36,161 nt of DNA. Origin: a virus. Positions 1 through 21,631 of this stretch are shown in pieces. The first letter of the stretch is position 1; each line of letters begins with the position of its first letter. The translations under genes and the position numbers were made by a program. The notes below the pieces were generated by a model, which worked only from the letters and a program-made list of their open reading frames with translations, made no database searches and was not told the origin of the DNA. Location of the stretch: IMG/VR virus record IMGVR_UViG_3300002448_000161. One strand, written 5' to 3'.

Positions 1-162
1 CTGCAATTTCAGGGAGAATTGCCCCTTGTGGCAGCCGGTGGCTGATCTCCGGTGGCGGATGAGGGCGTTCTGGAGGTAGCCCATATCCAGCAGTGCCTGG
101 TCCAGCTGTCGGTAGCCGGTTCTGGTGGTGGTCAGCTTGTATTGCAGGCTGGTTGCTGGCAT
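1..162 (-). CDS. tnpB: TnpB, element 0, N-terminal 54 codons (truncated by window edge; not in ORF track)
   Basis: Manual translation from ATG 162: MPATSLQYKLTTTRTGYRQLDQALLDMGYLQNALIRHRRSATGCHKGQFSLKLQ; 32/54 identical to the N-terminus of the TnpB at 9036-10388. Confidence 0.9.
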   Translation of the reverse strand, partial: MPATSLQYKLTTTRTGYRQLDQALLDMGYLQNALIRHRRSATGCHKGQFSLKLQ

Positions 163-253
163 GGGCGCAAGCTCCTGGGTTGACTGTATGTCGGGTACTG
201 TCAGTTGGCAATTAGCTGCTGTCAGTGGGGCTTGAAGAGTAGCGGAATTTTCT
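1..253 (-). mobile_element. TIR-bounded tnpB element 0, upstream end only
   Basis: tnpB start plus AGTAGCGGAATTTTCT at 238-253, identical to the upstream end of element 2 (13604-13619) and at a similar distance from the ATG. Confidence 0.8.
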
Positions 254-280
254 CCTCTTTGCCTCTGGCTTTCCTGATTT

Positions 281-1168
281 TCAGCGCGTGTGCTGCAGGA
301 TCAGCTCGGCGGTGTCGGAGTCCTTCAGGTCCAGGAACAGGGTTGTCGCCGTGGTCTCAGCGTCGCCGTCGTCTCCGGCGTCGTCCTCGGTGAAGTGGAT
401 CATGCCGGGTATGCGGTGAGGCTCAGCCGGCTGGCGGCTTGCCGCGTCGAACTTGATGCTGGCCGTCCCGCCCATGACCTTGATGGTGGCGCCGTCGTTT
501 ATCACGTCGGCCACGTCCTCCTCTCCGCAGCAGGTCTCGATGGCCTCGGTAAGCCGCTGGTGGTCCAGCGCTCCCGCGGGGTCGGGCGCGGTGAAGCGTA
601 CCTTGACCGGTTCGCCCTCTTCCAGGAGTTGGCTGGCCATCAGGCCGTCACATTGGAAGGAGCTCTCGGCGCTCGTCCCGCCGGTTACGTCTTCGTCCTT
701 TGCTGACGCGGCTTGGCCGCCTGCCTGGACGTGGTTCCCCTTTTCCTGCGCGGCCTCGTGGCCGGCGTTGTCCGTGGTGTCGCCCTCCGGTTCCAGGTCC
801 ATTCTGGGTGTCCAGTCCGTGAGGCCCCAGGTGTCGTTGCCAACGGCGTAGAAGCGTTTGTTCTGGTCGCCGGACATGTGACTGCGGATGTTGTGCGGGG
901 GATTCTCTCCGGGGACCAGTATTCCCTCGGCCTCCAGCCGGGTCAGGATGTCCTTGGGGTGCATCGCCCTTCCCTCGGTCTTGAGCACGTTCTCGATGTT
1001 GCTCTTCAGGACGTCGCCGGGGTTGCGGCGCAGCTCGCTGTCCTCGTCGGTGTTGGTGTAGAAGCTTATAACGCCCCGGAAGTGGTTGGCCAGGGAGTTC
1101 AGCCTGGTCAGCTCTCCCTCGATGCGCTGGAGTTGCTGTTTCATCTGCCTGATCGTGCCTGGATTCAT
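281..1168 (-). CDS. Protein with HARE-HTH/RNAP-delta-like winged helix
   Basis: Coiled-coil N-terminus, then IENVLKTEGRAMHPKDILTRLEAEG...NIRSHMS...RFYAVGNDTWGLTDW, a typical HARE-HTH pattern. Confidence 0.65.
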   Translation of the reverse strand: MNPGTIRQMKQQLQRIEGELTRLNSLANHFRGVISFYTNTDEDSELRRNPGDVLKSNIENVLKTEGRAMHPKDILTRLEAEGILVPGENPPHNIRSHMSGDQNKRFYAVGNDTWGLTDWTPRMDLEPEGDTTDNAGHEAAQEKGNHVQAGGQAASAKDEDVTGGTSAESSFQCDGLMASQLLEEGEPVKVRFTAPDPAGALDHQRLTEAIETCCGEEDVADVINDGATIKVMGGTASIKFDAASRQPAEPHRIPGMIHFTEDDAGDDGDAETTATTLFLDLKDSDTAELILQHTR

Positions 1169-1207
1169 TACTCTTGTCCTCCGGCCGCCTTCCTCGCGGC
1201 CGTAATC

Positions 1208-1546
1208 TTAATTTGGGGCCGCGGGGTCCTGGCTCGCGTCGTCTGTTCCGGTCCCGGGCGGCTTCTTCGATGGGTCCTTCTCCCGCAGCGCCGGGATAAT
1301 AATGCGCCACCGGGGCGTCTCCACCAGGCTTTCGGCCAGTATTTCTCCTGCCGACATATCGAAGTAGTGGTCCCGTTCTGCCTTGTCGGTGTCCTGCAGC
1401 AGGTCTGCAACGCACTGCGGACAGATTACCCCGGCCCGGTGGCCGCCGATTTCCTTCCTGGTATTTTCAAGCTGCTGGCGTAGCTCCTCGCCGCCCTTCA
1501 GGCGCCGGTGGCAGCCTGCCGTTTCGCACTTTTTGTAGAACGTCAT
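1208..1546 (-). CDS. Hypothetical Cys-containing protein
   Basis: ATG 1546 (MTFYKKCETAGC...ICPQC); fits the co-directional gene packing. Confidence 0.5.
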   Translation of the reverse strand: MTFYKKCETAGCHRRLKGGEELRQQLENTRKEIGGHRAGVICPQCVADLLQDTDKAERDHYFDMSAGEILAESLVETPRWRIIIPALREKDPSKKPPGTGTDDASQDPAAPN

Positions 1547-1593
1547 TGCCTTTTTGTCCCTTCCCGCCGGTCTGGTCAGGCGGTGCTGGAGCG

Positions 1594-2226
1594 TTAGCTC
1601 GTTGCGGTGTGCGGCACTACCTGCACGGCTCCGCCGTGCCATTTGACCAGCGAGGCCATCGTCGCTGCGCTGTCGCCTCCGCTCGGTGTCTCCTGGTTGT
1701 TGCAGCCGTAGTTGGGCAGGATGATCATCCCCTGCGCTCTCTTTTTGGATCTCTGGCGGAGCATGATCAATGCGGTTCCCCCGTTCAGCCGCCGGTAGGC
1801 GGGGTCGAAGCCCATCCAGCTTTTGTTCTCGGGTACCGTGGTCACGGTCATGGTGAAGTCTTCACCCGTCCTGTCGAGCGTGGCGATGACCAGCTCCTTC
1901 CGGGGGTTGAAACCGTTGCTGCTCTTTGCTGACAACTCGCCCAGGGCCAGGTCGAACAGGGCTGCCGGGGTCATGCTGCCCCAGCTGTCCGATTGCAGGG
2001 TCATCCTCAGGTTTTCGTTCCGTACTCTCTGCCGCAGGTATTCGGCGTCCCGCAGGGCTGTTGGCCCGGCCTCGTCGCTGGCGGAGGCGTTGCCTTGCTT
2101 TCTGGTCCCAGGCGAGTCGTCCATCTGCCGGAGCAGCGTGATCGCTCTTTCGATCCGGTCTGGTTCCGGGACTCCGGGCCATACTGCCATCTCGTTGTCG
2201 TCGGTTATGTATTCCGGCAGTTGCAT
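1594..2226 (-). CDS. Hypothetical protein
   Basis: 210-aa ORF with AAGGAG RBS upstream. Confidence 0.6.
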   Translation of the reverse strand: MQLPEYITDDNEMAVWPGVPEPDRIERAITLLRQMDDSPGTRKQGNASASDEAGPTALRDAEYLRQRVRNENLRMTLQSDSWGSMTPAALFDLALGELSAKSSNGFNPRKELVIATLDRTGEDFTMTVTTVPENKSWMGFDPAYRRLNGGTALIMLRQRSKKRAQGMIILPNYGCNNQETPSGGDSAATMASLVKWHGGAVQVVPHTATS

Positions 2227-2256
2227 TTGCTTTTATGCTCCTTTGTCTCGCGTTCC

Positions 2257-2327
2257 GGGCCCGGCCCGCTCCCCTGGCTTGGCCCTGCTTGGAGGAGGGG
2301 GCTTTTGCCTGGCGGCGGGCCGGGCCC
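2257..2327. repeat. Perfect 13-bp GC-rich inverted repeat with 45-nt spacer
   Basis: GGGCCCGGCCCGC (2257-2269) / GCGGGCCGGGCCC (2315-2327), intergenic, followed by TTTCTTTTG on +. Confidence 0.7.
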
Positions 2328-2337
2328 TTTCTTTTGT

Positions 2338-3039
2338 TCAGTCTGCCAGCGCCGGCCCTTGTTCAGTGGCGTCTGGGCCTCCGTTGTTCGCAATGTAGGT
2401 CCTCAGGATGATCTCCGGCGCTATCCTTAGGGTGAAGTCTTCCAGCGTTTCCTGCTCACCGTCGTCCCTGGTCAACCGCGTGCTGGCTGCCAGCATGATG
2501 GGTCGTCCGAGGGCGGTTATCGTAATTGCGAAGACGGCGTCGTCGTTCTCTCCTTCCTTGGAGCCGCCCGGGCCTGTGCGGTCCGTTCTGGATCTCAGCT
2601 CTCCGGCGTTTTCGCTGTGCACTCTTCTCTGCTGTTCAGCCACGTTCTGGCTGGTGTCAGCCCTGACGCTGATGATCAGGTCCCCGACGGTGCAGTGGGC
2701 GTGGTGATCGTCGATCTGCCAGGCCAGCTTCAGTTGGCCCTCTGTCCGGCGCCGCGCGTCCCGGAACAGGCTGGGCGGTACCCGCAGCGCGAAGGCCTGC
2801 AGCGGCTGCGCCGCCCCGTGTTCTATCTCGTCCATGAGGCAGAAGTTGGTCATGCAGATCTGGCCGTCGATCCACCCGCGGATGATGATTCCCGGGGTAT
2901 CGTCGTCGGGTTTATCCCGGGTGTGGTTCAGGGTACTGGTTGCCGCCTCGGCCGGAATTTCCATGCCGTTGCTGTGGCCGTCCTGTTGAAAGGACGTCTG
3001 GAAGGTGCCCCAGGTCCCCTCGCGGGCCTCCAGTTTCAT
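2338..3039 (-). CDS. Hypothetical protein
   Basis: ORF open to 3126; ATG 3039 has an AGGAAGAGG RBS. Confidence 0.55.
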   Translation of the reverse strand: MKLEAREGTWGTFQTSFQQDGHSNGMEIPAEAATSTLNHTRDKPDDDTPGIIIRGWIDGQICMTNFCLMDEIEHGAAQPLQAFALRVPPSLFRDARRRTEGQLKLAWQIDDHHAHCTVGDLIISVRADTSQNVAEQQRRVHSENAGELRSRTDRTGPGGSKEGENDDAVFAITITALGRPIMLAASTRLTRDDGEQETLEDFTLRIAPEIILRTYIANNGGPDATEQGPALAD

Positions 3040-3178
3040 TTCCTCTTCCTGCCAGGTCAGCCGCCCGGCGCGGGGCGTCCAGCCGTTGATCGATGGTTGG
3101 TCCCGTTCCGGCGTATCCCGATACATTCTTGTGTCGTCCTCGCTTTTTGGTGGCGGGCTGCTCTGCTTGGGCCGCCCG

Positions 3179-3556
3179 TCAGCTGAAGAATTCCAGGGCC
3201 TGCAGCTGGCTTTCCTTTCGGGCGATCTCGCCTTTCAGTCTTTCCTTCTCGCGGTCGCGGGCGTTGCTGGCGGCCTCTGCCGTGCAACCTTCGATGACCT
3301 CGTGTAGCCGGTTTACGGCCGCCTCAATGTCCGGGTAATTGTGGGTCGGGATTTCCTTCAGCTTGACGTTCTCCCGGCTGCGATCCAAGACGGAGAAGGC
3401 CATCAGCTGCCACTGGCTCTGCTCGGCTGTCACCACGGGTGTCATCGCTGTCTTGAACCGGATGTAATCGTTTACGCAGCTCGCCGTGATGTCCTCCTCG
3501 CTTGCCGGGTTGTAGCTGAGTCTCAGTCCGTTTTTGTAAGTCTTTGTTTTTTGCAA
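3179..3556 (-). CDS. Hypothetical protein, C-terminal coiled coil
   Basis: 125-aa ORF with a charged helical tail. Confidence 0.55.
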   Translation of the reverse strand: MQKTKTYKNGLRLSYNPASEEDITASCVNDYIRFKTAMTPVVTAEQSQWQLMAFSVLDRSRENVKLKEIPTHNYPDIEAAVNRLHEVIEGCTAEAASNARDREKERLKGEIARKESQLQALEFFS

Positions 3557-3626
3557 GGCGGTCCGTCCCCTGTCGTTTATTGGTTAGCTTAGCGTTGCAG
3601 CCTTCTGCGGCAATTCAGGCGGGGGG

Positions 3627-4229
3627 CTACTGGACGCAGCTTCGGCCGTTTATGGTAAAGCCGTCGATTTTCACGCCGGTTAGCAGTCGGGTGGCTGCTT
3701 TCTCGGGCTCGCCGGTCTCGTCCAGGTGGTTTTTCAGCGCGGTCAGCAGGCGGCCGAGGACGTTTGTGCCGCTGTAGCCGCCTGGCACTGGCCTGGCGCC
3801 CCAGAAGGGGTCCCGGTGCGAGTTCTCGACGATGTCCCGGTGTACTGTTTCCCGCAGCGCTCGCTCGAACTTGGCTGGGTGCTGCATCAGCTTGATTGCC
3901 AGGGTCAGCGCCATGGCCTGGATCCTCAGCTGGTCCCAGCCGGCCATGGGCTGTACCGGCTGGTCGTAGGCGGCCCGCTTGGCTTCCATGCCGGATCTGG
4001 CCGCTGCGATGCTTCGCTGGATCTCCGGGTGGTCGGGGAATTTCATTGCCTGGTACAGGCCCTCCGGCCCCTGGAAGGTTAGCCCGTTCACCTTGAGCGG
4101 GTATCCCCAGGTCATGTTGGAGAGCTGGCCGTAGGCGTCCTTGGAGCGCCGGAAGGCGGCTGATCCGGTTAACTGGTAGTTCCTGTGGGCCAGGTCCGAT
4201 TCTATGTCTGCGACAGTTTCTATCTTCAT
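3627..4229 (-). CDS. NADAR (YbiA-like) family protein
   Basis: Motifs LSNM..YPL, EGLYQAMKF, WDQLRIQAM, IVENSHRDPFWGA, GTNVLGRLL; AAGGAGG RBS. Confidence 0.9.
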   Translation of the reverse strand: MKIETVADIESDLAHRNYQLTGSAAFRRSKDAYGQLSNMTWGYPLKVNGLTFQGPEGLYQAMKFPDHPEIQRSIAAARSGMEAKRAAYDQPVQPMAGWDQLRIQAMALTLAIKLMQHPAKFERALRETVHRDIVENSHRDPFWGARPVPGGYSGTNVLGRLLTALKNHLDETGEPEKAATRLLTGVKIDGFTINGRSCVQ

Positions 4230-4300
4230 CTTTGGTCCTCCTTCGGTGTCTTTGTTTTTGGTCGACTCCGAAGGGCGTGGGGCCTGGCGCCAGCCGGCCC

Positions 4301-4732
4301 TTATCCTTCCTCGTTGGCGGCTCTGGACTTTTCTTCCTTCAGCCTGCGCCGGTGGTCTTCGAACATACGGCTGATCGTTTTGTCCCTCTCGATGTCGGCC
4401 TTCATCTCCTTGGCCGTCAGGCCCCGGATGGTTGCTGGCAGCGCCTGGTAACCGTCTCCTGTCGGGATGTGGATCAGCCGTATTGGTTTGAAGCTGGCTA
4501 CGTAGTAACGCGCGTAATTGTCGGCTGCAGGGGTTTTCCAGACCCGGTCGGGGTCGAGCCGGTTGAACGATTCCTCTTCTTTCGTGTTATGTTCCCGCCA
4601 GCTGGCGCATTGGAGACTTTCCTGGTCCTGGGCCATTGTGCCGTCGGCGTCGATTTCGACGCATGTGAGCGGGTTGTTTCGGTCCGCGTTGCTCCAGTGG
4701 CCCGGTGGGTAGCCGGTTATGAGTTTTGGCAT
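4301..4732 (-). CDS. Hypothetical protein
   Basis: 143-aa ORF with GGAGGAAGG RBS. Confidence 0.6.
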   Translation of the reverse strand: MPKLITGYPPGHWSNADRNNPLTCVEIDADGTMAQDQESLQCASWREHNTKEEESFNRLDPDRVWKTPAADNYARYYVASFKPIRLIHIPTGDGYQALPATIRGLTAKEMKADIERDKTISRMFEDHRRRLKEEKSRAANEEG

Positions 4733-4763
4733 TGGGGTTTCCTTCCTCCAGGTCTGGTGTCAG

Positions 4764-5345
4764 TCAGGCCGGTTCTTCGCTCAGGGCCCCCACCCACAGC
4801 AGGATGGTGGTCCTGACCTCGCCGTGGGCCTGAGCGGCCAGTTGCAGTCCGGTGGGGCCTGGCCGCTCCACCGCCGCGCGGTGCGCCAGCGCCGCCTCCG
4901 CCGTCCTCAGCATGAGCACCGCGGACCAGTCCATCAGTCCCTTCTGTGTAGCGGATTCGTCAAGAGTCAGGGTATGCGGCATGGGCTGGTGGGTGCTCCG
5001 GTACTGGCTGCTGGTGTATCCAAAGTGGTGTTCGACACTTTCGGCGTTGAGGTATACCAGCGCCAGCGCGTTGAGGAGCTTGTTGCGGCAGCTCCTGGCC
5101 TTTGGGCCGCCTCGTCGTACATCGCCGGCCTGTTCGGCGGCGCTGCTTGCCTCTGCGGCGCACCGGACGTTGTCGAAGGCTGTGTATATCCCCGGGCTTT
5201 TGTCCCTGATCCTCCGGCCGGACCTCAGGGCCTTCTGCCAGTCCTCGTTGTCGTCGGCCTGGGTGATGGCCTGAATCCTCTGTTCCAAGTGCTGTTCCTC
5301 CTCTGATTCACCTGCCTGGAGGCCGTGGCCGGCTTTCTTTGCCAC
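4764..5345 (-). CDS. Hypothetical protein
   Basis: 193-aa ORF in the co-directional array. Confidence 0.5.
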   Translation of the reverse strand: MAKKAGHGLQAGESEEEQHLEQRIQAITQADDNEDWQKALRSGRRIRDKSPGIYTAFDNVRCAAEASSAAEQAGDVRRGGPKARSCRNKLLNALALVYLNAESVEHHFGYTSSQYRSTHQPMPHTLTLDESATQKGLMDWSAVLMLRTAEAALAHRAAVERPGPTGLQLAAQAHGEVRTTILLWVGALSEEPA

Positions 5346-5402
5346 GGCCCGTGGGCGGCTTCGGGTTGTTCGTTTGCCTCGCTGTTCGAGTCCGTCAATT
5401 TT

Positions 5403-5654
5403 CTATTCTCCTTGGTCTTCAGATTTCTCTTCGATCAGTTCCACGCAGTAGGGCGGGACCTTGTCGATGCGCGCTTTGATGTGGCAGGTGGCGCACCCCT
5501 CGGTTATGAGGGAGTAACCCTGGCGCTTGTTCTCAATGCGGCATATCGTGCCGGCGGGTATTTCGTACAGGCCAGTCCTCACTTTCTGCAGGAGTCTCAC
5601 CCGGCGGCCGACGACGTCTTTTTTGCTGAGCTTGCGGTACTCCGTGTAGTTCAT
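5403..5654 (-). CDS. Small beta-rich protein with CxxC; paralogue of the repeats in 11528-12037
   Basis: VGRRVR..EIPAGTICRIENKRQGYSLITEGCATC..IDKVP. Confidence 0.65.
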   Translation of the reverse strand: MNYTEYRKLSKKDVVGRRVRLLQKVRTGLYEIPAGTICRIENKRQGYSLITEGCATCHIKARIDKVPPYCVELIEEKSEDQGE

Positions 5655-5676
5655 GGCGGCGCCTCTCGTTTCTGCT

Positions 5677-5955: not shown

Positions 5956-5968
5956 CTGCGGCCTCCTG

Positions 5969-6511: not shown

Positions 6512-6578
6512 GGCATTTCCTCCTTTGGTGTCGCCTTGGTCCCGCAGGGTTTCGGGCCCGGTTACTGCTGGCTTACCG

Positions 6579-7223: not shown

Positions 7224-7241
7224 CGTTGGGGTTAGTTCTCC

Positions 7242-8776: not shown

Positions 8777-8958
8777 TTTTGCTGCTCCTCTGCCCGCTCT
8801 GGCGGCCGGCTATTCATTGTGGTTGTGAGACCTTGCTCCGCGCCAGTGGCACGTGGCATAGCGCCCTGGGGCGCGTCAGTCCTGGCTGCCTTCCTGGCGC
8901 CGGCTCCCGGCGCCGGCTTTTTCCAGAACTCCTCGTATTTTGCCCTTCTTCTGAAGAT
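8704..8958 (-). pseudogene. 3' part of the HTH gene interrupted by element 1
   Basis: Reads IFRRRAKYEEFWKK..., in frame with 10483-10735 once the element and one repeat are removed. Confidence 0.75.
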
Positions 8959-9135
8959 TAGAAAATTGCGAAACTCTCTGCTTTTGGCTGGGGCCTCTTG
9001 CCTGAGGGTTTTTGCGGTCCTGCGTGCAGCGCCGGTCACGGTCTGGAAGCTAACGCTTCCAGCCCTGCCTTATGCGCTTGCTTCCCCGTGGGGCTTCCGG
9101 CGGCACGTCCAGGCCGTCCCGAGGGACGGTTTTCT
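8959..9135 (-). ncRNA. Putative omega-RNA scaffold of element 1 (boundaries approximate)
   Basis: Conserved with elements 2 and 3; overlaps the tnpB 3' end; hairpins at 9043-9062 and 9114-9129. Confidence 0.6.
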
Positions 9136-10388
9136 GCCCTGGCCAGGAGATTTAATCCCTGGCGCCGGATGTTTTCCGCCGCGTTGACGTCGGCGTTGGC
9201 GGTGTGGCCGCAGTCGGTGCATTTGAACAATGCCTGAGACCTGCGGTTCGCTTCGTCTATGGATCCGCATTTACCGCATAGCCGGCTGGTGTTAATTGCA
9301 GGCACTGGTACCAGGGAACGGCTGTACCACTGGCATTTGTACTCCAGCTTCTGGCGTATCCCGTACCAGCCCTGGAACAGGATGGACCGGTTGAGTCCGG
9401 ATTTCTGCCGGACGTTGGTGCCGGGCTTGTCCACTGTGCCTCTGGCTGACCTTACCATGTTGGAAATGCGGGTGTCCTCGATGCAGACTACCTGGTGGTC
9501 TTTGACCAGTTGTGATGTAATCCGGTGCTGGAGTCCGGCAAGGGAGTCCTGGCGTTTTTGCTCTACTCTTCGGAGCATGGCCAGGGACTTGAGGTAGTTG
9601 TGGGAGGGGCCATCGGTCCAGCGGAATCTCCGCCTGGTCCGGCTGTTTGAGAGCTTGTGGGATACGAACCGGGCTCGGCCGTCCTTCAGGGCGGAGTCCC
9701 GCTGCCTTTGCATTTTCCGCCGCAGTCTTCGCATCACCTTCCGGTGTTCTCTGTCCTTCAGCCCGGGCACCTGGGCAACTTGTCCTGTTTGGTTCACGGC
9801 GGTCAGCAGGTGCTTGACCCCGGGGTCTATGCCCACCGACTGGTTTGGAGCCGGTTCCGGGGTTATTTCCTGGTTGAAGACCAGCAGGACGTTGTAGCGA
9901 CTCGGAGTGCGGGTAATCCGGATTATTCTGGGCTGGACCCCTTCAGGCAGACGGTTATTCGGCTTGAATTGGAGTCTGGGCAGCCCCTTGATGTGGACGT
10001 AACCCTTCCTGCCGTCCTCGGACAGCTTCAGGTGGCCTACTGCTGGCTCGGAGATCTCCATGGTATTAAGCCGGTAGGGGCTGCTGGTGCGGGGCCTGCC
10101 GCGCTCGGGTCTCTTAAAGTATTCGCTGAAGGAGGTGTTGACCCGTCTGGCTGCTGATGCCAGCAGTCTGCGGGCGTAGCGGTTATAGACCGGGTCGTTC
10201 CGGTTCAGGTCCGTCAGGTGGGCATTCTGCAGTTTCAGTGACCACCTTCTCCTGTGGGAGCCGGTGGCCGTATTGCGGTGCCGGATGAGGGCGTTGTACA
10301 GGTTTCCCATATCCAGCATGGCCTGTTCCAGCTGACGATAGCCGTGGCTGCTGGCAGTGGCCCGGTATTTCAGGGTGGCGGTCTGCAT
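9036..10388 (-). CDS. tnpB: RNA-guided endonuclease TnpB (450 aa, intact RuvC)
   Basis: RuvC-I VGIDPG, RuvC-II CIED, GLNRSIL.QGW, Zn finger CGKC/CTDC, RuvC-III NADVNAAENI; ATG 10388 aligns with the other copies. Confidence 0.95.
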   Translation of the reverse strand: MQTATLKYRATASSHGYRQLEQAMLDMGNLYNALIRHRNTATGSHRRRWSLKLQNAHLTDLNRNDPVYNRYARRLLASAARRVNTSFSEYFKRPERGRPRTSSPYRLNTMEISEPAVGHLKLSEDGRKGYVHIKGLPRLQFKPNNRLPEGVQPRIIRITRTPSRYNVLLVFNQEITPEPAPNQSVGIDPGVKHLLTAVNQTGQVAQVPGLKDREHRKVMRRLRRKMQRQRDSALKDGRARFVSHKLSNSRTRRRFRWTDGPSHNYLKSLAMLRRVEQKRQDSLAGLQHRITSQLVKDHQVVCIEDTRISNMVRSARGTVDKPGTNVRQKSGLNRSILFQGWYGIRQKLEYKCQWYSRSLVPVPAINTSRLCGKCGSIDEANRRSQALFKCTDCGHTANADVNAAENIRRQGLNLLARAENRPSGRPGRAAGSPTGKQAHKAGLEALASRP

Positions 10389-10482
10389 GTACGCCTCTGC
10401 TGGGGAGTTTATCTGGCTAGGCTTGCTTTCAGCTACGGCCAACTGTCAGTTCCTCTGTTTTTCAGAGTTTCGCAATTTTCTG

Positions 10483-10735
10483 TGAAGATGGTCCTGGCGG
10501 TTATGTTGAACTTGGCGGCGGCCTCATTCACTGTCAGGCCCTCGGCCTCAATGCACTCCCGCAGGTCCCGGTCCTGGATCGGTTTGATCAGGGTGCTGTC
10601 CTCCAGGCGGCATACGGGAAAGGGGCATCGCAGGCATGACGGGGCCAGGTGGCATCCCTGGTTTGGTGGCGGGGTCCCGAACCCCGGGAGTGCGTCGATG
10701 GGGACCAACGGCAGGGTCCTGTCTTGGCTGGTCAA
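10483..10735 (-). pseudogene. 5' part of a Cys-cluster + HTH gene interrupted by element 1
   Basis: GCHLAPSCLRCPFPVC...GLTVNEAAAKFNITARTIF; breaks inside the predicted HTH recognition helix exactly at the direct repeat. Confidence 0.8.
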
Positions 10736-10771
10736 TCCTGGCGCTCCTTGTGTCGCTTCTCGAGCCCTTGT

Positions 10772-11122
10772 CTAGGGCGGGGCCACGCCCTGCAGGCGGT
10801 CGCCGGGGTTTCGGAATTCGTGAAGCAGGGAGTCGATGTCCTCGAGGGCGTCGCCCACGCTGTTGTGCGAGCGGGTCTCGTAGTTGTCGGTGTCCCACGG
10901 CCGGTAGGCCGCCACCTTTATGACTTTGTCCTCTCGATCGGCGGTCGCCTGTCGACCGGCGCTGGTTGTGGTCACCTCGGCGATTCTCTGGCTGTGCTCC
11001 TGGTCCTTGACCAGGGCGTAGCCGTGCACTATCTCGTAGGCCAGGTTCGGCCCGGTAAGGTCGTGGACCCCGTCGATCAGCCTCTGGATGACGGGGCAGC
11101 TGGTTTCAGGTTTTTTGTTCAA
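10772..11122 (-). CDS. Hypothetical protein
   Basis: TTG 11122 overlaps the upstream stop; AAGGAG RBS. Confidence 0.5.
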   Translation of the reverse strand: MNKKPETSCPVIQRLIDGVHDLTGPNLAYEIVHGYALVKDQEHSQRIAEVTTTSAGRQATADREDKVIKVAAYRPWDTDNYETRSHNSVGDALEDIDSLLHEFRNPGDRLQGVAPP

Positions 11123-12037: not shown

Positions 12038-12039
12038 CG

Positions 12040-12121
12040 TCAGTTCTCCTTTTGGCTTGGTCTGCCCGCTGTGGTCAGCGGGTTGTCCGGGCAGCCGGTG
12101 TTGGTCCAGTATTCGCAATCC
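12040..12121 (-). pseudogene. 3' part of the small Cys gene interrupted by element 2
   Basis: The empty site reads ..HEPDCEYWTNTGCPDNPLTTAGRPSQKEN*, ending 2 nt before the next start codon. Confidence 0.7.
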
Positions 12122-12265
12122 TGGAAAATTCCGCTACTGGTGTAGTGGGTTCGCACGTGCAGCGCTAGCCGTTGGGCGTAGTCTCAACTACGCCTTCCTG
12201 CCTGGTGCGCTTTTTTCCTTGGGGATTCCGGCGGCACGCCCAGGCGGTCCCGAGGGATCGTTTTC
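12122..12265 (-). ncRNA. Putative omega-RNA scaffold of element 2 (boundaries approximate)
   Basis: Shares CGTGCAGCGC and TTCCGGCGGCACG with the other copies; 8-bp hairpin at 12175-12194 in the equivalent position. Confidence 0.55.
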
Positions 12266-13537
12266 TGCCCTGGCCAGGAGGTTCAGCCCCTGGCGCCGGA
12301 TATTTTCTGCCGCGTTGACGTCGGCGTTGGAGGTGTGACCGCAGTCGGTGCATTTGAATAGCGACTGCGATCTGCGGTTTCCTGCTTCAATTGAACCGCA
12401 TTGGCCGCATAGGCGGCTGGTGTTTATTGCCGGAACCGCTATGAAGTCTCTTTCGTACCAGTGGCACTTGTATTCCAGCTTGGTTCTCACGCCGTACCAG
12501 CCCTGGAACAGGATGGAGCGGTTGAGTCCTGCCTTCTGCCGGACGTTGGTGCCGGGGTTTTCCACCGTTCCACGGGCCGACCTGACCATGTTTGATATGC
12601 GGGTATCCTCGATGCAGACGACTTGGTGGTCTTTAACCAGTTGCGAAGTAATCCGGTGCTGGAGACCTGCAAGGGAGTCCTGGCGTTTCTGCTCTACTTT
12701 TCGGAGCTGGGCCAGGGTCTTGAGGTAGTTGCGGGATGGGCCTTCGGTCCACCGGTATCTTCGCTTCGTCCGTCCGTTTCCCAGCCTTTGAGAGACGAAC
12801 CGGGCCCGTCCGTCCTTCAGGGCGGAGTCCCGTTGTCGTTGCATCTTTCTGCGGAGTCTCCGCATTACCTTCCGGTGCTGGTTGTCCTTCAGCCCGGGTA
12901 CCTGGGTGGTCTCTCCTGACTCATTCACGCTGGTAAGCAGGTGTTTCACCCCCGGGTCTATTCCCACTGAATTCTTTGGAGCGGGAACTCTGGCAACTTC
13001 TTGGTTGAAGACCAGCAGGACGTTGAAGCGCCTGGGGGTGCGGGTTATCCGGATGATGCGGGGCTGCTCCTTCGGGGGCAGCCGCTCGTCAGTTCTGAAT
13101 GACACCCTTGGCAGTCCTTTGACGTGGATGTAACCATTCCTGCCGTCTTTGGACAGTTTCAGGTGGGCTACGGCCGGCTCGCTTATCTCCAGCGTATTGA
13201 ACCTGTAGGGGTTGTTGGTACCTGGCCTGCTGCGCTCGGGTCTCTTGAAGTATTCGCTGAAGGAGGTGTTGACCCTTTTGGCGGTGGATACCAGCAGCCG
13301 ACGGGCGTACTGGTTATAGACGGGGTCATTTCGGTGCATGTCCGTCAGGTGGGCGTTCTGCAGTTTCAGGGTCCACTGTCTCCGGTGGGAGCCGGTGGCG
13401 GTCAGCCGGTGTCGTATCAGGGCGTTGTATAGATAGCCCATATCCAGCATGGTCTGTTCCAGCTGGCGGTAGCCGTGCCTGCTGGCGGTGGCCCTGTATC
13501 TGAGAGTCGTTTTGACCTGTCGGTTATGGTCTGTCAT
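12188..13537 (-). CDS. tnpB: RNA-guided endonuclease TnpB (449 aa, intact RuvC)
   Basis: VGIDPG, CIED, CGQC/CTDC, NADVNAAENI. Confidence 0.95.
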   Translation of the reverse strand: MTDHNRQVKTTLRYRATASRHGYRQLEQTMLDMGYLYNALIRHRLTATGSHRRQWTLKLQNAHLTDMHRNDPVYNQYARRLLVSTAKRVNTSFSEYFKRPERSRPGTNNPYRFNTLEISEPAVAHLKLSKDGRNGYIHVKGLPRVSFRTDERLPPKEQPRIIRITRTPRRFNVLLVFNQEVARVPAPKNSVGIDPGVKHLLTSVNESGETTQVPGLKDNQHRKVMRRLRRKMQRQRDSALKDGRARFVSQRLGNGRTKRRYRWTEGPSRNYLKTLAQLRKVEQKRQDSLAGLQHRITSQLVKDHQVVCIEDTRISNMVRSARGTVENPGTNVRQKAGLNRSILFQGWYGVRTKLEYKCHWYERDFIAVPAINTSRLCGQCGSIEAGNRRSQSLFKCTDCGHTSNADVNAAENIRRQGLNLLARAENDPSGPPGRAAGIPKEKSAPGRKA

Positions 13538-13619
13538 TGCTTTCTCTGCTGTCGCCGGGAGTTTGTGCGAGTTAACCCGCTGCTGTTTGGTTAGAGTTTT
13601 CCGAGTAGCGGAATTTTCT

Positions 13620-13843
13620 CAATCCGGCTCGTGGTCGCTGCCGTCGAACCAGGTGGGGAGTCCCTCTCCGTCCTGCTCACATTCGCCGAACCCGTCGGTG
13701 CCGTCTGAGGCGGCGCGAGCGCCGCATCTGCTGCATGTGGGGGTCAGCTCTGCGCGTTCGGCTGTGATCCAGCTTTTCATATCCCAGTCATGGGGTCCCT
13801 TCGTTATCTGAGCGGGGTCGCTTATGTGGTTGCTCCCTGTCAT
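13620..13843 (-). pseudogene. 5' part of the small CxxC gene interrupted by element 2
   Basis: Its TGA is created at the element junction; continues in frame at 12115 in the reconstructed empty site. Confidence 0.7.
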
Positions 13844-14242: not shown

Positions 14243-14287
14243 CGGTACGGGCTCCTTTCTGTAACTGTTGTCTTGTTTCCCCTAGGC

Positions 14288-15060: not shown

Positions 15061-15152
15061 TCCTTGTTCCCTGGTACCCTCCTTCTCTTGATCGCCCTGG
15101 TGTCGGCATGCTGGGCGTGATTCTCCGGGCTATACGGGTTCGTGTTTATGTC

Positions 15153-15182
15153 AAAACGAAGGGCCCCCGTTTGTCGGGGGCC
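15153..15182 (-). terminator. Intrinsic terminator
   Basis: Minus strand GGCCCCCG-ACAAA-CGGGGGCC followed by CTTCGTTTT, just after the 15217 stop. Confidence 0.65.
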
Positions 15183-15216
15183 TTATCTCCTTTTCTGTCC
15201 GGGTTTAGTTGGAGTG

Positions 15217-16890
15217 TTAGTTCGGGGTCAGCGTGCCCATCATGCTGCCGCTCAGCGTCCCTCCGGTCCTGGTACACGCTGTTGTGGTTGCGTTGCAGTC
15301 ATTTCTCGCGGGCAGCAGCAGGACCATTGTGGACCTCGGCTGTCCTGCGACCTTTATCCGCCAGTGGGCGCTGTTCCGGTGGATCGGCCAGGCCTCGGTG
15401 ACGCTGCCGTTGATGATCTGGAACATACCGTCTCTTGGATGGCCGTTCCCGACCCTAACCGGTTCGCTGAACGTGAATTCCAGGTAGGTCCCTGCTCCTG
15501 AGTTATGGCGGTCCGTTTTTTCGCTCCACGCGGCCGTCAGCGGCATCCTGAGCAGCTTGCTGCCGTTCTGGACTGAGATCTGGCTTAGCCTGGGGTCCGC
15601 GTGGTTGCCCGGGTGTCAATCAGGGACCATGCGTCTGGCGCCGTGTCGGGCTGGTACCTGAGGGTAACCGTGTCGCCTTTGTATATGGCCCGTTTCAGGT
15701 GGATCGTTACGCGTCTTCCGCTGTAGGTCAGGGACGTGGCCTGTATCCTCGCGTCGTTGACGCGGATCTGCAGGCTGTCGAGACCCCGCTGGTCCGGCGC
15801 CAGGGGTTCCATGTTGGAGCCGAAGCTCAGCCTTATGGCCTCGCCGTTGGCGGTTACGCTCTGCTGGTAGAGCCAGGGCTTGGTCGACTGGGCTCTGGCC
15901 CAGCGCTCGTTGGAGGGCGGTCCCGTTTCGGTTCCACTCTTTGCCTTGACCCGGACGCTGTAGCGTTGTCCCTGAACCAGATCCCGCAGGATGGCCACTG
16001 CTACCGAGTTTTCGGGCTCGACCAGGGTGCTATGCACCTGGGTCGGGTCGTTCCACGCGGCGGTTACCGGCTTCCATTGCAGGAGGTACCCGTCGATCTC
16101 GTCCTTCTTTTCCGTGGGCGGGTACCAGATGGCGTATATCGCGCCGGCGGCGGTTATCAGCTGCAGCTGTTCTGGCCTCCCTGGGGCGGTGGATGTCGCC
16201 GGCTCCTCACCGTCGTTGTCGTCCAGTCTTGCCCTTACCGTGAGTCCGCTTTCCCATCGGGCCAGCGTGTCGTAGGGCATTTCCGATTCCCAGGCGAGCT
16301 TGCTGCCGTCGGCTCCCTCCGCTTCGTTGAATTGCAGCGGCGCGTTGTCCAGGTAGAGGGTCCACGTCGCGTAGTCTTCCGTTGGGTCTGCCGCTGTCCA
16401 GCCTCCGTGGGCGTTTTGGCGGTAGAGCGTGGCTATTACCTGGCTGGTGCAGGGATCCACGCCGTGGATGCCTCCGGGGTGGTCAGCCGGGTTGCTGCTG
16501 GGCTTCAGGGTCAGGGTGTTGAGCTGGTAGGTCCTGCCCTCGTGGTAAAGGTTGTGTTTACCCGTCGCAACGGAACCGGCAGGGACTCGGCGTAGGTCAG
16601 CTTGAATTCGTCCCAGTCCTGCAGGCCGAGGTCCGCCATGGGCAGTCGCCGCACCAGAGGGTGCAGGGCTCCAGTGTTCTGACCTTCAGCTCTGCGCTCA
16701 CGTTGGAATACCTGGCTCCCGATCCCTGGTGGGTCAGTGTTACGGTCTCGTCCAGCAGGTCTTCGTCCGCGGCTGCGTGGAGGGTGATGCGTTGTCCCGT
16801 TCTCCAGTTGCCGCTCGTGAAGTGTAGTTGGGTTGGCTTTACCCCCAGGTTTATTCCGCTGTGTCCGGCTATTGTGACGGTGGTCCCGCC
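15217..16890 (-). pseudogene. 5'-truncated, frameshifted surface protein (Ig-like, fibronectin III, SwmB-like and C-terminal Cys-paired domains)
   Basis: LHFTSGNWRTGQRITL..DETVTLTH; FN3-like PGRP..WYPP..IDGYLLQWK..YSVRVKA; SwmB-like VTANGEAIRLSF..VTLRY; frame changes near 16645, 16575 and 15612. Confidence 0.7.
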
Positions 16891-16899
16891 CGTTCCGGT

Positions 16900-17386
16900 T
16901 CCCTCTGTCGTGTTGGTGGTGATTGTCCTGTGGGCAATCTTCCAGCTTGGTTTCCCCCTGCGGCACTTTCTGGTCCCTGGGAATGTGAGCTGGACTGAGG
17001 AGGGGCATCTTTTTGCTTGGCATATGATGCTCAGGAGCAAGTCTGAGGATGTGACCGTTATGGTTGAGCGGGATGACGGCTCGGTTACTTCCTATTCCCT
17101 TACCGATGAGGATCTGCCGGTTCCTCTTACCAGACGTCATCGTGATACCATTTCGGGCCGCGCTTATATAATGGTCCAGTATGCTCATGCGGTAGCGGAG
17201 CAACCCGGCGTTGAGGGTGTTTATTTTGACGTATGGGCCAGTCTCAACAGCCGTGAGTGGAGGCTCCTTATTGATCCGGAGGTGGATCTTTCCAAAGAGC
17301 CTCTTTTCTGGTTGGGTCATGCTCCGTGGGTTTTCCATGAGGATGAGGCGCTGAGGCGTGTTTATGCGGAGCCCGGGGGGTCCTGA
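16900..17386 (+). pseudogene. C-terminal fragment of an HTTM / vitamin K-dependent gamma-carboxylase-like protein
   Basis: FQLGFPLRHFLVPGNVSWTEEGHLFAWHMMLRSK...VWASLN.R..RLLIDPEVDL..PWV; N-terminal membrane domain absent. Confidence 0.8.
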
Positions 17387-17469
17387 AATTCTAACGTAGT
17401 TGGGTGGGTCTGGGGGGGCAAAGATGGTAATATCGGGGTGTAGTTATACCCCTCTGGAGGCTCTTTTCT

Positions 17470-17700
17470 ATGTCAGTTGAGTGGTCAGTTGCGACCGTTG
17501 ATATTGCCGTCGGCCGGGATGCCGACGGCGTCGATTACCTTATTTCCTGGTGTCCCGCCCGGGTGACCGTTGAGAGCGGCGAACCTTTCGGCTCCGAATT
17601 TTTTCCAATCTTTACCGGCGGTTCGTTTATGGTTACCAGTGAGGGCGAGCGGCTCGGTGTCTACGAGACTCTGGAGGCCGCCCAGGCCTCTATTCCTTAA
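17470..17700 (+). CDS. Hypothetical protein
   Basis: GGAGG RBS at 17456-17460; TGGTAATAT extended -10-like motif upstream. Confidence 0.55.
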   Translation: MSVEWSVATVDIAVGRDADGVDYLISWCPARVTVESGEPFGSEFFPIFTGGSFMVTSEGERLGVYETLEAAQASIP

Positions 17701-17736
17701 ACCTCGTAGTTGTTTTTTCCGCTGGGTGACTTTGTC

Positions 17737-18117
17737 TTAAATGATGGTCCCGTTGTACCGGTTCAGGGTCTTGCGGACGTCGTTCCGGGCCCAGGCCAGG
17801 TCGCGCCTGTAGATGTCCCGGTACTTCTGCCGGTGTTTCACCGCTCTGTCCAGCGTCCGGCGCCCTGCCTCCTGTGCGCTGATCTGCGCCACGCTGGTCA
17901 TCATCAGGAACCATTCGCAGCCGTTGCCCCGGCCGCTGGCATGGTCGGCGACTACATTTGCAGCGCTGGTGGCGTTCAGGTATCCCAGGCTCTCGCAGAT
18001 AAGGTATGCGGTCAGCAGCGGGTACCTGTTGAGCGCCTGGGCGCCGGTCATTGATTTGTGGTCCCTTGGCCTTGGCTCCAGCGTCGCTGTGGGCCTGTCA
18101 GTTCGATTTTCGTTCAT
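17737..18117 (-). CDS. Hypothetical protein
   Basis: 126-aa ORF. Confidence 0.55.
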   Translation of the reverse strand: MNENRTDRPTATLEPRPRDHKSMTGAQALNRYPLLTAYLICESLGYLNATSAANVVADHASGRGNGCEWFLMMTSVAQISAQEAGRRTLDRAVKHRQKYRDIYRRDLAWARNDVRKTLNRYNGTII

Positions 18118-18163
18118 CCTCGCTCCGGGTTCTTGTTTTGATTCCTTTCCGGTCGGCTGGCCT

Positions 18164-18988
18164 TTACTGGTAGCTGGCTGCGTTGTAGTCCAGCACCTTC
18201 TCCAGGAAGTCGTCCATTGCTTGGTCGGTGGTAAGGCCGTTGGCTATCGCGAAGGCGTAGCCTGCCGTCAGCGCGTCGCCCGCTCCGATGAAGTCGCTTC
18301 CGGCCGGTACTTTTATGGCCGGTAGGTGCCTCCTGTTTCCGTTCATCCAGAAGTCGGTCCGGCCGCTGGCCCCTTGGGTTACAAAGACCCGCGAGATTCC
18401 CATTTTCTGTGCGGGATTGTCGTCGGGGTCGAACCTCATTCTCCTGGCGAGAGCCTGTAGCTCGGCCTGGTTCATTGTCGCTGCGGTGATGCCTCTCATC
18501 CGTCCCAGCCTGGGTACCATTCCTTTCGTCGTTGCGTTGGCTATTATGTTACCGCCGGTTACGGCCAGCGCTGACAGGTCGTTGACGTCCAGGTAGAGGG
18601 AGCAGAGCACCATGTCGTAGTCCTTCCTAATGTCGCGGATTTCCTGTGCTATGCTGCCCGGGACTGGGAAGTGGCCCTTGGTGGCCGTCGGCTCCCCGTT
18701 TCTCACGCTTATGCGGGCCGTCCCTTCCCTGATGGCAGGTGGCCGTCCGTCGGCCAGTATCGCCGTTACTCCCAGGGTCGTTAGTGCTTCGTTCAGTCTT
18801 TCCTGCTGGGTGGGCGTTACTGGCGCCAGGAGTGTCACGTTGGCCTCTGCCCTGGCTAATTCCCGGGCCATGATGCCTCCGACGCCTCCGACTTGCTGTC
18901 GGGTCCTGCCGTCTTCCCTGGTTACGGTTTCCTCCATGACGTTGCCTACGACGAGGAATTTTGGTTCCCTGTTGGTGTTGGTTGTCAT
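18164..18988 (-). CDS. PfkB/ribokinase-family kinase
   Basis: LVVGNV, QVGGVGG, MNQAEL, VFVTQGASG, DFIGAGDA signature. Confidence 0.85.
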   Translation of the reverse strand: MTTNTNREPKFLVVGNVMEETVTREDGRTRQQVGGVGGIMARELARAEANVTLLAPVTPTQQERLNEALTTLGVTAILADGRPPAIREGTARISVRNGEPTATKGHFPVPGSIAQEIRDIRKDYDMVLCSLYLDVNDLSALAVTGGNIIANATTKGMVPRLGRMRGITAATMNQAELQALARRMRFDPDDNPAQKMGISRVFVTQGASGRTDFWMNGNRRHLPAIKVPAGSDFIGAGDALTAGYAFAIANGLTTDQAMDDFLEKVLDYNAASYQ

Positions 18989-19007
18989 CCCGTGGTCCCG
19001 CCTCCTC

Positions 19008-19349
19008 TTACCAGTTCCGCTTGCGGTGGAGTTTGCTCTTCAGCCAATCGAGCCCGTCCGGTGTACCGCACTTCTCCGGCCATCCTTTCAATGTTTCTTC
19101 CAGGCTCTGGTAGAAAATCTGGCCCGGGTCGGCGGGCCAGTATCCAAGCACGGTGATCGGCTCATTTAAGCCGTGGGTCCTTTGGTATATTTCTTCCGTG
19201 TCACGTATGTAGGAGACCTCAGCGGTGGTTCCGAGCCTGTCGATGCGCCACATTACTCCGTACAGGCATTCCCTGCTTGCTCGCCTTCGCGGGTCGTCGT
19301 TGTAGAAGTCCTCGAGGCTGGCGAAATCTATCTCGGTGTTTTGGCTCAT
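19008..19349 (-). CDS. Hypothetical protein
   Basis: 113-aa ORF, GAGGAG RBS. Confidence 0.6.
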   Translation of the reverse strand: MSQNTEIDFASLEDFYNDDPRRRASRECLYGVMWRIDRLGTTAEVSYIRDTEEIYQRTHGLNEPITVLGYWPADPGQIFYQSLEETLKGWPEKCGTPDGLDWLKSKLHRKRNW

Positions 19350-19376
19350 CTAGGCCGTCTCCTCAGGCCCCGCCGG

Positions 19377-20051
19377 TCAGGCGGCCATTTCGTTGTTGGC
19401 TCCGTTGGGTCTTTGGACTTCTGAGCTGTGGACGGTGAAGTTGTTGTAACTGTCGTCCTCGAGCACCAGGTGCTCCTTTCCCAGCAGCGTTATGACGTTA
19501 TAAAGCCTCCCCTCGAACCGTACCGTCTGGCCGGTTTTATAGTCATGTTTTGGCAGCGTGCTGATGGGCTCCGCTGGAGGGGCAGTTGCCCTGCAGGGCT
19601 TTGCAACCTCTTGGTTGCCCGTTTCCTCTTCGTAGGTATCTTCGTCTGTTCGGGGTTCTGCCCGTCCTGTGTCCTTGCCTGGGTCGCTGTCACTTTCCGG
19701 GGCGTTGGCCGGGCCGATTTCCAGTGAGAACGCGTCGTCAGGCGCAGGCGCCGTTTTCTCTGTCGTCTGTGGCGTTCCCTTGGCGGCCCGCTGGCTGGGG
19801 GCTCTCCTTGAGGTCTTCTGCGCGGCGGCCTCTCTTGTGGTCGCCGTGGCTGTCCTGTTCTTGTGGCGCCGGTTGGCGGTTTTCTCGAAGGCCGGGACCT
19901 GGTTGATCACGGCGCTCTGCGCCAGTCTGAATATGGCTGCTGCCTCGCTGGCTGTGTATACGTGGCCGTCGTAGGTGCCTTGGGCCATGGCCGTGGCCCT
20001 CTGTATTTCCTCCGGGCTCAGGTAACGGCGCGGCTTGGGTAGCTGGTACAT
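19377..20051 (-). CDS. Hypothetical protein (HTH-like N-terminus, beta-rich C-terminus)
   Basis: YTASEAAAIFRLAQSAV; GGAGGAG RBS. Confidence 0.6.
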   Translation of the reverse strand: MYQLPKPRRYLSPEEIQRATAMAQGTYDGHVYTASEAAAIFRLAQSAVINQVPAFEKTANRRHKNRTATATTREAAAQKTSRRAPSQRAAKGTPQTTEKTAPAPDDAFSLEIGPANAPESDSDPGKDTGRAEPRTDEDTYEEETGNQEVAKPCRATAPPAEPISTLPKHDYKTGQTVRFEGRLYNVITLLGKEHLVLEDDSYNNFTVHSSEVQRPNGANNEMAA

Positions 20052-20079
20052 TGCTCCTCCTTCCTGTTCTCTCTGATTC

Positions 20080-20255
20080 TAGAAAATTGCGAAACTCTCT
20101 GCTGTTGGCCGGGGCCGTTGCCCTGAGGGTGTTCGCGGTCCTGCGTGCAGCGCCGGTCACGGTCTGGAAGCTATTGCTTCCAGTTCTCCCTTATGCGCTT
20201 GCTTCCCCGTAGGGCTTCCGGCGGCACGCCCAGGTGGTCCATTGGGACCGTTTTC
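20080..20255 (-). ncRNA. Putative omega-RNA scaffold of element 3 (boundaries approximate)
   Basis: Close match to 8959-9135; hairpin CTGGAAGC-TATT-GCTTCCAG at 20164-20183. Confidence 0.6.
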
Positions 20256-21508
20256 TGCCCTGGCCAGGAGGTTTAATCCCTGGCGCCGGATGTTTTCCGC
20301 CGCGTTGACGTCGGCGTTGGCGCAGTGGCCGCAGTCCCGACATTGAAAGAGCGACTGCGACCTGCGGTTTGTCGGGTCAACCGAACCGCACTTTCTACAA
20401 AGCGGCTGGTGTTCATGGCCGGAACGGTTATGAAGTCTCTGTCATACCACCAGCACTTGTATTTCAGCTTCTGCCGGACGCCGTACCAGCCTTGGAAGAG
20501 GATGGAGCGGTTTAGGCCGGCCTTCTGGCGCACGTTGGTGCCGGGGCTCTCTGCCGTGCCCCTGGCCGACCTGACCATGTTGGAAATGCGCGTGTCTTCG
20601 ATGCAGATTATCTGGTGGTCTCTGACCAGTTTGCTGGTAATTCTGTGTTGGAGCCCTGTAAGGGAGTCCTGGCGTTTCTGCTCTACTCGTCGGAGCGTAG
20701 CCAGGGTCTTGAGGTAGTTATGGGATGGGCCGTCGGTCCACCGGAATCTTTGCTTGGTGCGCCCGTTGGATATTTTTTGGGAAGTGAAGCGGGCCCGTCC
20801 GTCCTTCAGGGCGGAGTCCCGCTGCCGTTGCATCCTGCGCTTCAAGCGTCTCATAACCTTCCTGTGTTGCTGGTCCTTCAGCCCGGGGATCTGGGTCACT
20901 TGTCTTGATTCATCTACGGCGGTAAGCAGGTGTTTCACTCCGGGGTCAATGCCCACTGAGTGGTTGGCCGCTGGTACTGTTGGAATCTCCTGATTGAAGA
21001 CCAGCAGGACGTTGAAGCGCCTTGGGGTGCGGGTGATGCGGATAATCCTGGGCTGTTCCTTGCGAGGCAGCCGCCCGTCAATTCTGAAGGACAGCCGGGG
21101 CAGCCCTTTGACGTGGATGTGACCCTTCCTCCCATCTTTAGAGACCTTCAGGTGATTGACTGCTGGTTCGGAGAGTTCCAGGGTATTGCACCGGTAGGGG
21201 CTGCTGGTGCGTGGCTTGCCCCGCTCTGGCGTTTTGAAGTATTCGTTGAAGGCGGTATTGACCCTTTTAGCAGTGGATTCCAGCAGGCGACGGGAGTAGC
21301 CGTTATAGACGGGGTCATTTCGTCGCAGGTCTGTGAGGTGGGCGGTCTGCAGCTTGAGGGACCACCTTCTCTTGTGGGAGCCGGAAGCGGCCATGCGGTG
21401 TCGTATCAGGGCGTTCCGTAGGTGTCCCATGTGGAGCATGGCCTGTTCCAGCTGGCGGTAGCCGTGGCTGGTGGTGGCTGCCCTGTATTTCAGGGTGGTG
21501 GTCTGCAT
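20157..21508 (-). pseudogene. tnpB: TnpB with a 1-nt deletion near 20400 (real or sequencing error)
   Basis: 1352 nt versus 1353 in element 1; the shifted frame continues CRKCGSVDPTNRRSQSLFQCRDCGHCANADVNAAENI...ASRP*. Confidence 0.9.
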
Positions 21509-21631
21509 TAACCCCCTCTTTTGTCCAGTGTATCTGGCCTTCCGAGCATTCAGCTACGGGCAACTGTCAGTCTCTCTGCTTTTCAGAGTTTCGCAATTTT
21601 CCCTGATTCGGCGCCGTCGCGCCGCTGTCAA

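Follow-up and report, generated by a model that had tools for sequence, protein, structure and literature searches.

The 36,161-nucleotide viral record IMGVR_UViG_3300002448_000161 (the window, meaning the whole stretch of DNA that was analysed) carries three complete elements whose only gene is tnpB and the left end of a fourth. All are bounded by 17-bp terminal inverted repeats, and the window has seven copies of the motif that forms these ends, where 0.01 would be expected. The original prediction, made from the letters alone, had recognized the three complete elements of about 1.5 kb with their end repeats and had placed the fourth end at 238-253; it is a left terminal repeat at 238-254, and the remainder lies off the contig. 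The ends were taken as symmetric 17-mers, following the transposase-encoding elements described below, and the duplication lengths depend on this choice. The parts of the elements are as follows.

8959..10482, minus strand: element 1, tnpB only, 1524 bp; end motif, duplication, and empty site in runs X18 and X20
8959..8975, minus strand: element 1 right terminal repeat, 17 bp; final base A, versus C in transposase elements
10466..10482, minus strand: element 1 left terminal repeat, 17 bp
8952..8958, plus strand: duplication TGAAGAT beyond the element 1 right end, start of the predicted guide
10483..10489, plus strand: duplication TGAAGAT beyond the element 1 left end
10490..10491, minus strand: CC directly 5' of the element 1 duplication, candidate target-adjacent motif (TAM), putative role
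12122..13620, minus strand: element 2, tnpB only, 1499 bp, CCGCTACT end variant; empty site in X18 and X20
12122..12138, minus strand: element 2 right terminal repeat
13604..13620, minus strand: element 2 left terminal repeat
12117..12121, plus strand: duplication AATCC beyond the element 2 right end
13621..13625, plus strand: duplication AATCC beyond the element 2 left end, followed by minus-strand CC at 13626-13627
20080..21603, minus strand: element 3, tnpB only, 1524 bp; end motif and duplication
20080..20096, minus strand: element 3 right terminal repeat
21587..21603, minus strand: element 3 left terminal repeat
20074..20079, plus strand: duplication TGATTC beyond the element 3 right end
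21604..21609, plus strand: duplication TGATTC beyond the element 3 left end, followed by minus-strand CC at 21610-21611
238..254, minus strand: element 4 left terminal repeat; the remainder of the element runs off the contig

The DNA of the elements is 75-79% identical between copies. Their repeats had been described as perfect over 15-18 bp. The inner 15 bp are perfect, and over 17 bp the two ends of elements 1, 2, and 3 match at only 16, 15, and 15 positions. The flanking duplications are real and measure 7 bp (TGAAGAT, element 1), 5 bp (AATCC, element 2), and 6 bp (TGATTC, element 3); the earlier readings CAATCC and CTGATTC had included the first base of the element. An exact duplication of at least 5 bp arises by chance with p = 0.0027 per site. 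As a general feature of the family the duplication holds in part: 18 complete tnpB elements were examined, and it is exact in 7, carries two mismatches in 4, and is absent from 7. Comparison elements that lack tnpB have an exact duplication in 14 of 20 cases. These counts leave out L126 (insertion identical to L125), L155 (different repeat), and L130, L132, L133, L134, L066, and L158 (no matching ends found). Two transposase elements of genome G404 (L234 and L235) have swapped flanks, as expected from recombination between copies, and such recombination is one route of duplication loss. IS1182-type elements are described in passages of PMC12056078 as inserting with or without a duplication.

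Two sequencing runs from one study, X18 and X20, contain the empty sites of elements 1 and 2, each on a single long contig and each with one copy of the duplication. At the element 1 site, position 8951 is joined to 10483, and the 1531 bases skipped equal 1524 plus 7. At the element 2 site, 12115 is joined to 13620, and the 1504 bases skipped equal 1499 plus 5. In the independent runs X7, X9, X10, X13, X18, and X20, copies diverge from the window at 8959, 10481, 20079, 21601, and 254, and these points lie about 2 bases or less from the element ends. No joint corresponding to an empty site of element 3 was found in four runs. The ends, duplications, and empty alleles show that the elements are true insertions, and the large element that hosts them occurs in nature in both filled and empty form.

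The single gene of each complete element encodes a protein with the PF01385 and PF07282 domains that scores above the NCBIfam guided_TnpB cut-off. The four genes are listed here.

9036..10442, minus strand: tnpB 1, 468 aa as called from TTG; D206, E322, D418, and C4 zinc finger
12188..13537, minus strand: tnpB 2, 449 aa; D194, E310, and D406, invariant in 60 aligned homologues
20273..21508, minus strand: tnpB 3, frameshifted near 20399; zinc finger and RuvC-III out of frame
1..162, minus strand: tnpB 4, 5' part, first 54 codons

The RuvC D-E-D triad had been called intact in all three complete copies. Together with the C4 zinc finger it is in frame in elements 1 and 2, and in element 3 both RuvC-III and the zinc finger are lost to a one-base frameshift near 20399, where X7 and X13 have one extra base. 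D194, E310, D406, and the zinc finger are invariant across the 60 homologues, down to 49% identity. The intact catalytic residues predict nuclease activity for the TnpBs of elements 1 and 2. E310 stands 67 residues before the zinc-finger residue C377, and the distance from the tnpB 3' end to the element end is 77 bp in element 1 and 66 bp in element 2. Counting the window's own genome, this TnpB clade occurs in 2 of 301 genomes in a class-wide sample and 2 of 301 in an order-wide sample, and it occurs in 17 of 200 within the family; a metagenome scan with a single TnpB protein returned 1 weak locus among 85 candidates. The TnpB tree comes from a quick search without Fanzor or reference TnpB sequences, and its L150 row, probably a chimera of two hits, was ignored. 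On contig C56 of the window's own genome assembly, G000, two further elements (L012:3203-4778 and 9480-11053) hold TnpBs 29-30% identical to those of the window in the same shell, and the first is identical to element 3 over 46 bases at the left end and 21 at the right end. A divergent TnpB in the same shell suggests a cargo swap or a second capture. Another Dehalococcoidia genome encodes a distant TnpB (L155, 30-32% identical) within a different terminal inverted repeat, perhaps a TnpB with another transposase partner.

Ten of 40 relatives contain the exact end motif, and the named relatives are Dehalococcoidia. The elements that this motif bounds in G018 and G019, 5.8 kb and 4.0 kb long, code for a DUF772 + DDE_Tnp_1 protein plus cargo; these are the longer, transposase-bearing elements with the same ends that had been proposed as a check. 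Elements with GAGAAAATTGC[GA]AAACT ends in G018, G019, G374, G395, and other genomes encode the same type of protein. Its best NCBIfam model is IS1182 (NF033551), with 148-154 bits against a cut-off of 270; IS1182 was the best of 12 models matched, and IS5_4 followed with 92-103 bits against a cut-off of 140. The partner is called IS1182-like because IS1182 is its best model, yet the score falls below the cut-off. The protein has about 410-425 aa compared with 488 model positions, and it is 23-30% identical to its best PLSDB plasmid matches, several of them named IS1182. Conservation across 120 homologues is at least 93% for D141, D233, and Y345-R348-E352-K359, and the spacing of the last four corresponds to the YREK signature of the IS4 superfamily.

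Within the host family, 39 of 150 genomes contain this transposase family. It is also found in 13 of the 17 genomes that have this TnpB clade, a figure that rests on a looser cut-off (E ≤ 1e-30) and on genomes that are kin and hence not independent. G404, G466, G488, and G496 each contain tnpB and transposase elements that both have ATTTCGCTACT-type ends, and the right ends of the two kinds of element in G404 match at 16 of 17 bases. The length of the duplication tracks the end type in both kinds of element: transposase elements with one end type have 6-7 bp (n = 6) and those with the other 8-10 bp (n = 4), and the corresponding tnpB elements have 7, 5, and 6 bp versus 8, 7, and 9 bp. A tnpB element in G488 is nested within a transposase element with an identical left end. 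The identity of the ends and the agreement in duplication length implicate the IS1182-like clade, and an IS1182-like DDE transposase is very probably the partner that moves the tnpB elements in trans.

At the left end, a CC dinucleotide lies directly 5' of the exact duplication in 6 of 7 tnpB elements, the other having TC, and CC is on the right side of none of the same 7 elements. All 4 tnpB elements with mismatched duplications also have CC at the left position. Among controls, CC is found at 5 of 20 left ends (Fisher p = 0.009) and, when either side is counted, in 7 of 20 (p = 0.033); control pairs from the later element set were admitted only with an exact duplication. A first, smaller control set gave p = 0.024. 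The background frequency of CC on that strand is 0.125. The duplication is 5-10 bp long, and the motif is therefore fixed to the duplication edge, not to the element end. The right end, whose final base comes just before the guide match in a filled site, finishes with A or G in 23 of 24 tnpB elements and with C in 18 of 20 others, a change that would avoid a self-TAM. CC just 5' of the duplication is a candidate two-base TAM from a small sample, and we judge the chances that it serves as one and that the homing steps set out below occur to be, taken together, about even.

Conserved RNA structure with compensatory changes spans the tnpB 3' end and continues into the right repeat. The corresponding regions of the three elements are given here.

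8959..9119, minus strand: predicted omega-RNA scaffold of element 1, tnpB 3' end to right repeat tip; alignment-based prediction
12122..12250, minus strand: predicted omega-RNA scaffold of element 2
20080..20240, minus strand: predicted omega-RNA scaffold of element 3

In an alignment of 20 right-end regions, helix columns 12-17/96-101 are 99% paired and include three covarying pairs. RNAalifold predicts a second helix whose 3' strand is the terminal repeat itself. The covariation of this repeat helix is 0.63 compared with 0.20 for shuffled alignments (none of 500 reached the observed value) and no more than 0.26 when the register is slid; independent covariation events are few because the right-end sequences are related. 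The single-sequence fold of the element 2 3' region gave z = -1.07, and Rfam had no match to the right-end RNA region. The alignment predicts a structured omega-RNA that spans the tnpB 3' end and the right repeat. In known TnpBs, the guide is the sequence beyond the element right end. The guide here would be the duplication plus the downstream flank. Seven such predicted guides, taken as 16-mers, have no perfect second site in the genome; the only matches contain 1-2 mismatches, and none is preceded by CC.

We think it likely that these are tnpB-only elements mobilized in trans by an IS1182-like DDE transposase and equipped with an RNA-guided TnpB. The transposase, supplied in trans, would insert the cassette and make the duplication. 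The omega-RNA would span the tnpB 3' end and the right repeat, so that its guide would consist of the duplication and downstream flank. The empty allele alone would offer CC, duplication, and flank together, and TnpB with its RNA would cut that allele. Repair from the filled copy would then maintain the element, or spread it, among the copies of this large extrachromosomal-type DNA, because cutting would be restricted to the empty allele. The filled site would escape cutting through the altered final base of the right repeat. A more detailed scheme is tentative, and we hold it with less than even confidence. TnpB may have been fitted into IS1182-like ends, with the right repeat becoming part of the guide RNA and its tip altered against self-cutting; because the transposase would insert with little sequence choice, the nuclease may filter insertions, so that only those just 3' of CC could home from copies of a giant extrachromosomal element that hold the insertion to copies that lack it; and two TnpB lineages about 30% identical would have come to occupy the same shell.

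Several observations weigh against trans mobilization with an RNA-guided nuclease. Three methods found no cognate transposase in the own assembly (97% complete, 58 contigs), where the best profile match was 42.8 bits, to a distant DDE transposase. The original proposal of non-autonomous elements moved in trans by a DDE enzyme is supported by the IS1182-like partner within identical ends in relatives, even though no such gene was found in this assembly. Among the loci fetched, no transposase element has the exact CCGCTACT end of element 2. The nested tnpB of G488 is a truncated copy, and the transposase there is divided between two frames. Complete tnpB elements with no duplication (7 of 18) or a mismatched one (4 of 18) also count on this side. 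The CC test was post hoc on 7 related elements, C at position -1 is already favoured in controls (20 of 40 ends), and the first either-side test was not significant (6 of 14, p = 0.16). The altered base at the right end may go back to a single inherited change. In two registers, a pseudoknot involving the tip of the repeat scored no better than shuffles.

The same transposase could act in trans on a TnpB that is passive cargo, like the toxin-antitoxin pairs, with CC reflecting a transposase preference or a C-rich strand. This reading fits the PIN toxin-antitoxin pairs and other genes carried in the same ends, the several tnpB copies that are frameshifted or truncated, the favoured C in control ends, and the background CC frequency. 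Against it stand a catalytic triad and zinc finger that are invariant in homologues as distant as 49% identity, an RNA helix that covaries with the repeat sequence, and the one-sided CC (6 of 7 left, 0 of 7 right), and we consider it unlikely. Still less probable is movement by a different enzyme, either one of the distant DDE transposases on contigs C8, C37, and C50 of the own genome or an unknown integrase. Those transposases are present and the IS1182-like gene was not found in the assembly; however, a two-mismatch scan found no end motif near the DDE genes on the three contigs, and the identical ends and matching duplication lengths indicate the IS1182-like clade. Several elements also break at contig ends, so repeated genes perhaps went unassembled. 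Ordinary IS1341-type (IS200/IS605) solo tnpB genes with chance repeats, or an assembly artefact, would suit proteins that match general TnpB models but were ruled out by the empty alleles with one duplication copy, and the motif count of 7 versus 0.01 expected, the same anatomy in other genomes, and the absence of repeats and duplications from IS200/IS605 as described in PMC13565253 leave this explanation scarcely credible.

Comparisons with published systems refer to the cited passages of each source. Inverted terminal repeats are reported in six DDE-associated TnpB branches, and solo TnpBs share those ends (Altae-Tran 2023, PMC10691335). The element family is of this known kind, DDE-paired with solo inverted-repeat TnpBs, and the suggestion of a possibly undescribed pairing was too strong. 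Like DDE-1 to DDE-6 of that work, the present family has inverted repeats, solo tnpB genes in ends near-identical to those of transposase elements, and a tnpB 3' end less than 250 bp from the element end (77 and 66 bp here). A short motif upstream of the end is shared with DDE-5, TA at 8 bp there (PMC10691335 supplement) and CC at the duplication edge here. The family appears to differ from DDE-1 to DDE-6 in its IS1182-like partner, a distinction drawn from published descriptions, and it may overlap one of the six branches: the Altae-Tran text names IS630 as a DDE partner, the review PMC13565253 lists ISL2, IS630, and IS1031, and the passages of the Altae-Tran supplement have IS1182 once, in a list of profiles. 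The locus criterion used there is a DDE gene within 1000 bp of tnpB (PMC10691335); in our data this arrangement occurs in the nested G488 locus only and not in the window. The duplication here is 5-10 bp, with the motif tied to its edge and not to the element end.

IS1182 elements have inverted-repeat ends, passenger genes, and a duplication that is present or absent (PMC12056078, PMC5678879). The partner shares with them a DUF772 + DDE domain with catalytic D, D, and E, inverted repeats, passengers, and a variable duplication, but it fails the 270-bit cut-off of NF033551 (148-154 bits). The TnpB RuvC D-E-D and the zinc finger are common to IS200/IS605 (IS1341) and IS607, which also have a structured RNA at the right end of the kind predicted here. 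As had been stated, IS200/IS605 elements lack terminal inverted repeats and target duplications, and IS607 elements, with GG ends and a serine recombinase, lack repeats and duplications (PMC13565253). The 17-bp repeats, 5-7-bp duplications, and empty alleles found here are thus foreign to IS200/IS605, and the repeats and duplications to IS607. Fanzor DDE transposons likewise hold a TnpB-family nuclease within inverted repeats with duplications. Their catalytic E lies six residues before the zinc finger and the 5' duplication is part of the TAM (PMC13565253), whereas here the distance is 67 residues (E310, C377) and the candidate TAM is outside the duplication; this TnpB lacks the Fanzor catalytic layout. 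The pairing of IS1182 with TnpB is not named in the titles or abstract openings found, nor in the passages of PMC10691335, PMC13565253, and PMC5678879. What appears to be new here is the partner family, the variable duplication with a fixed CC beside it, and an RNA helix that uses the repeat itself.

The 2026 review suggests that inflexible target recognition by TnpB may make DDE-TnpB pairings rare in prokaryotes (PMC13565253). The tnpB family allows a direct test of that idea: the same sites occur naturally in filled and empty form, elements that share these ends can serve as controls whether or not they carry tnpB, and a specific TAM is predicted. The family further contributes a clade of TnpBs of about 430-470 aa for which a two-base C-rich TAM is predicted and an RNA scaffold defined, with possible use as editors.

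The whole stretch is present in six runs labelled sponge metagenome, from which it may derive. The window contig is strongly AT-skewed, as are C28, C29, C34, and C56. It encodes a sliding clamp, ribonucleotide reductase, helicases, ArdC, and DNA ligase. No virion genes were detected among 66 long open reading frames (ORFs) compared with Pfam and 30 compared with PHROGs, a search of long ORFs only. We infer that the window contig is a large plasmid-like or integrated element, and the skewed contigs are possibly a giant plasmid-like element. The window (1-36161) and G000 contigs C23, C28, C29, C34, and C56 amount to about 285 kb with an AT skew of 0.22-0.36 and replication and repair genes. Several homologues sit on contigs of 480-1050 kb that each carry multiple paralogues. 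In G000, five tnpB elements are complete and four more are halves located at contig ends, and 8 of these 9 are on skewed contigs; pairing the four halves by their duplications gave no match. The block at 15182-17420 of the window is variable because X7, X18, and X20 skip or replace it. Two opposite-strand genes in the window are a VKGC lumenal-domain fragment (16661-17386, plus strand) and a DUF5131 gene (28631-29380, plus strand). A scan of viral contigs for the end motif gave 44 single matches, none paired within 3-kb flanks and about the number estimated by chance, and it was not used.

The same ends also bound small transposase-free cassettes at L002:2298-3179, L003:2375-3672, L004:3696-5446, and L078:7675-8567. 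PIN-type toxin-antitoxin pairs are the cargo in L002, L003, and L078, L004 contains a PaREP1-like gene and an unknown ORF, and 3 of the 4 cassettes have exact 6-bp duplications. Elements of the same family adjoin each other at L230:1583-1765, L232:5084-5093, and L261:6252-6274 with duplications that are shared or abutting, and insertion may be preferred beside existing ends. An IS1182-like gene at L080:8915-10152 (G022) has a stop codon that overlaps an end motif oriented away from the gene, and no second end to pair with this motif was found. A different TnpB-like gene, 31% identical and with H aligned to the RuvC-III D, is located at L006:2642-4315 (G000:C28:42641-44314). It is directly followed by a five-repeat CRISPR-like array of 29-bp repeats and four 32-bp spacers, and this pair may be a type V system in the making or may have borrowed its mini-array. 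Within the same assembly, spacer 3 matches C48 and C49 (29/30) and spacer 4 matches C37 (27/29), and both spacer matches have CAA just before them.

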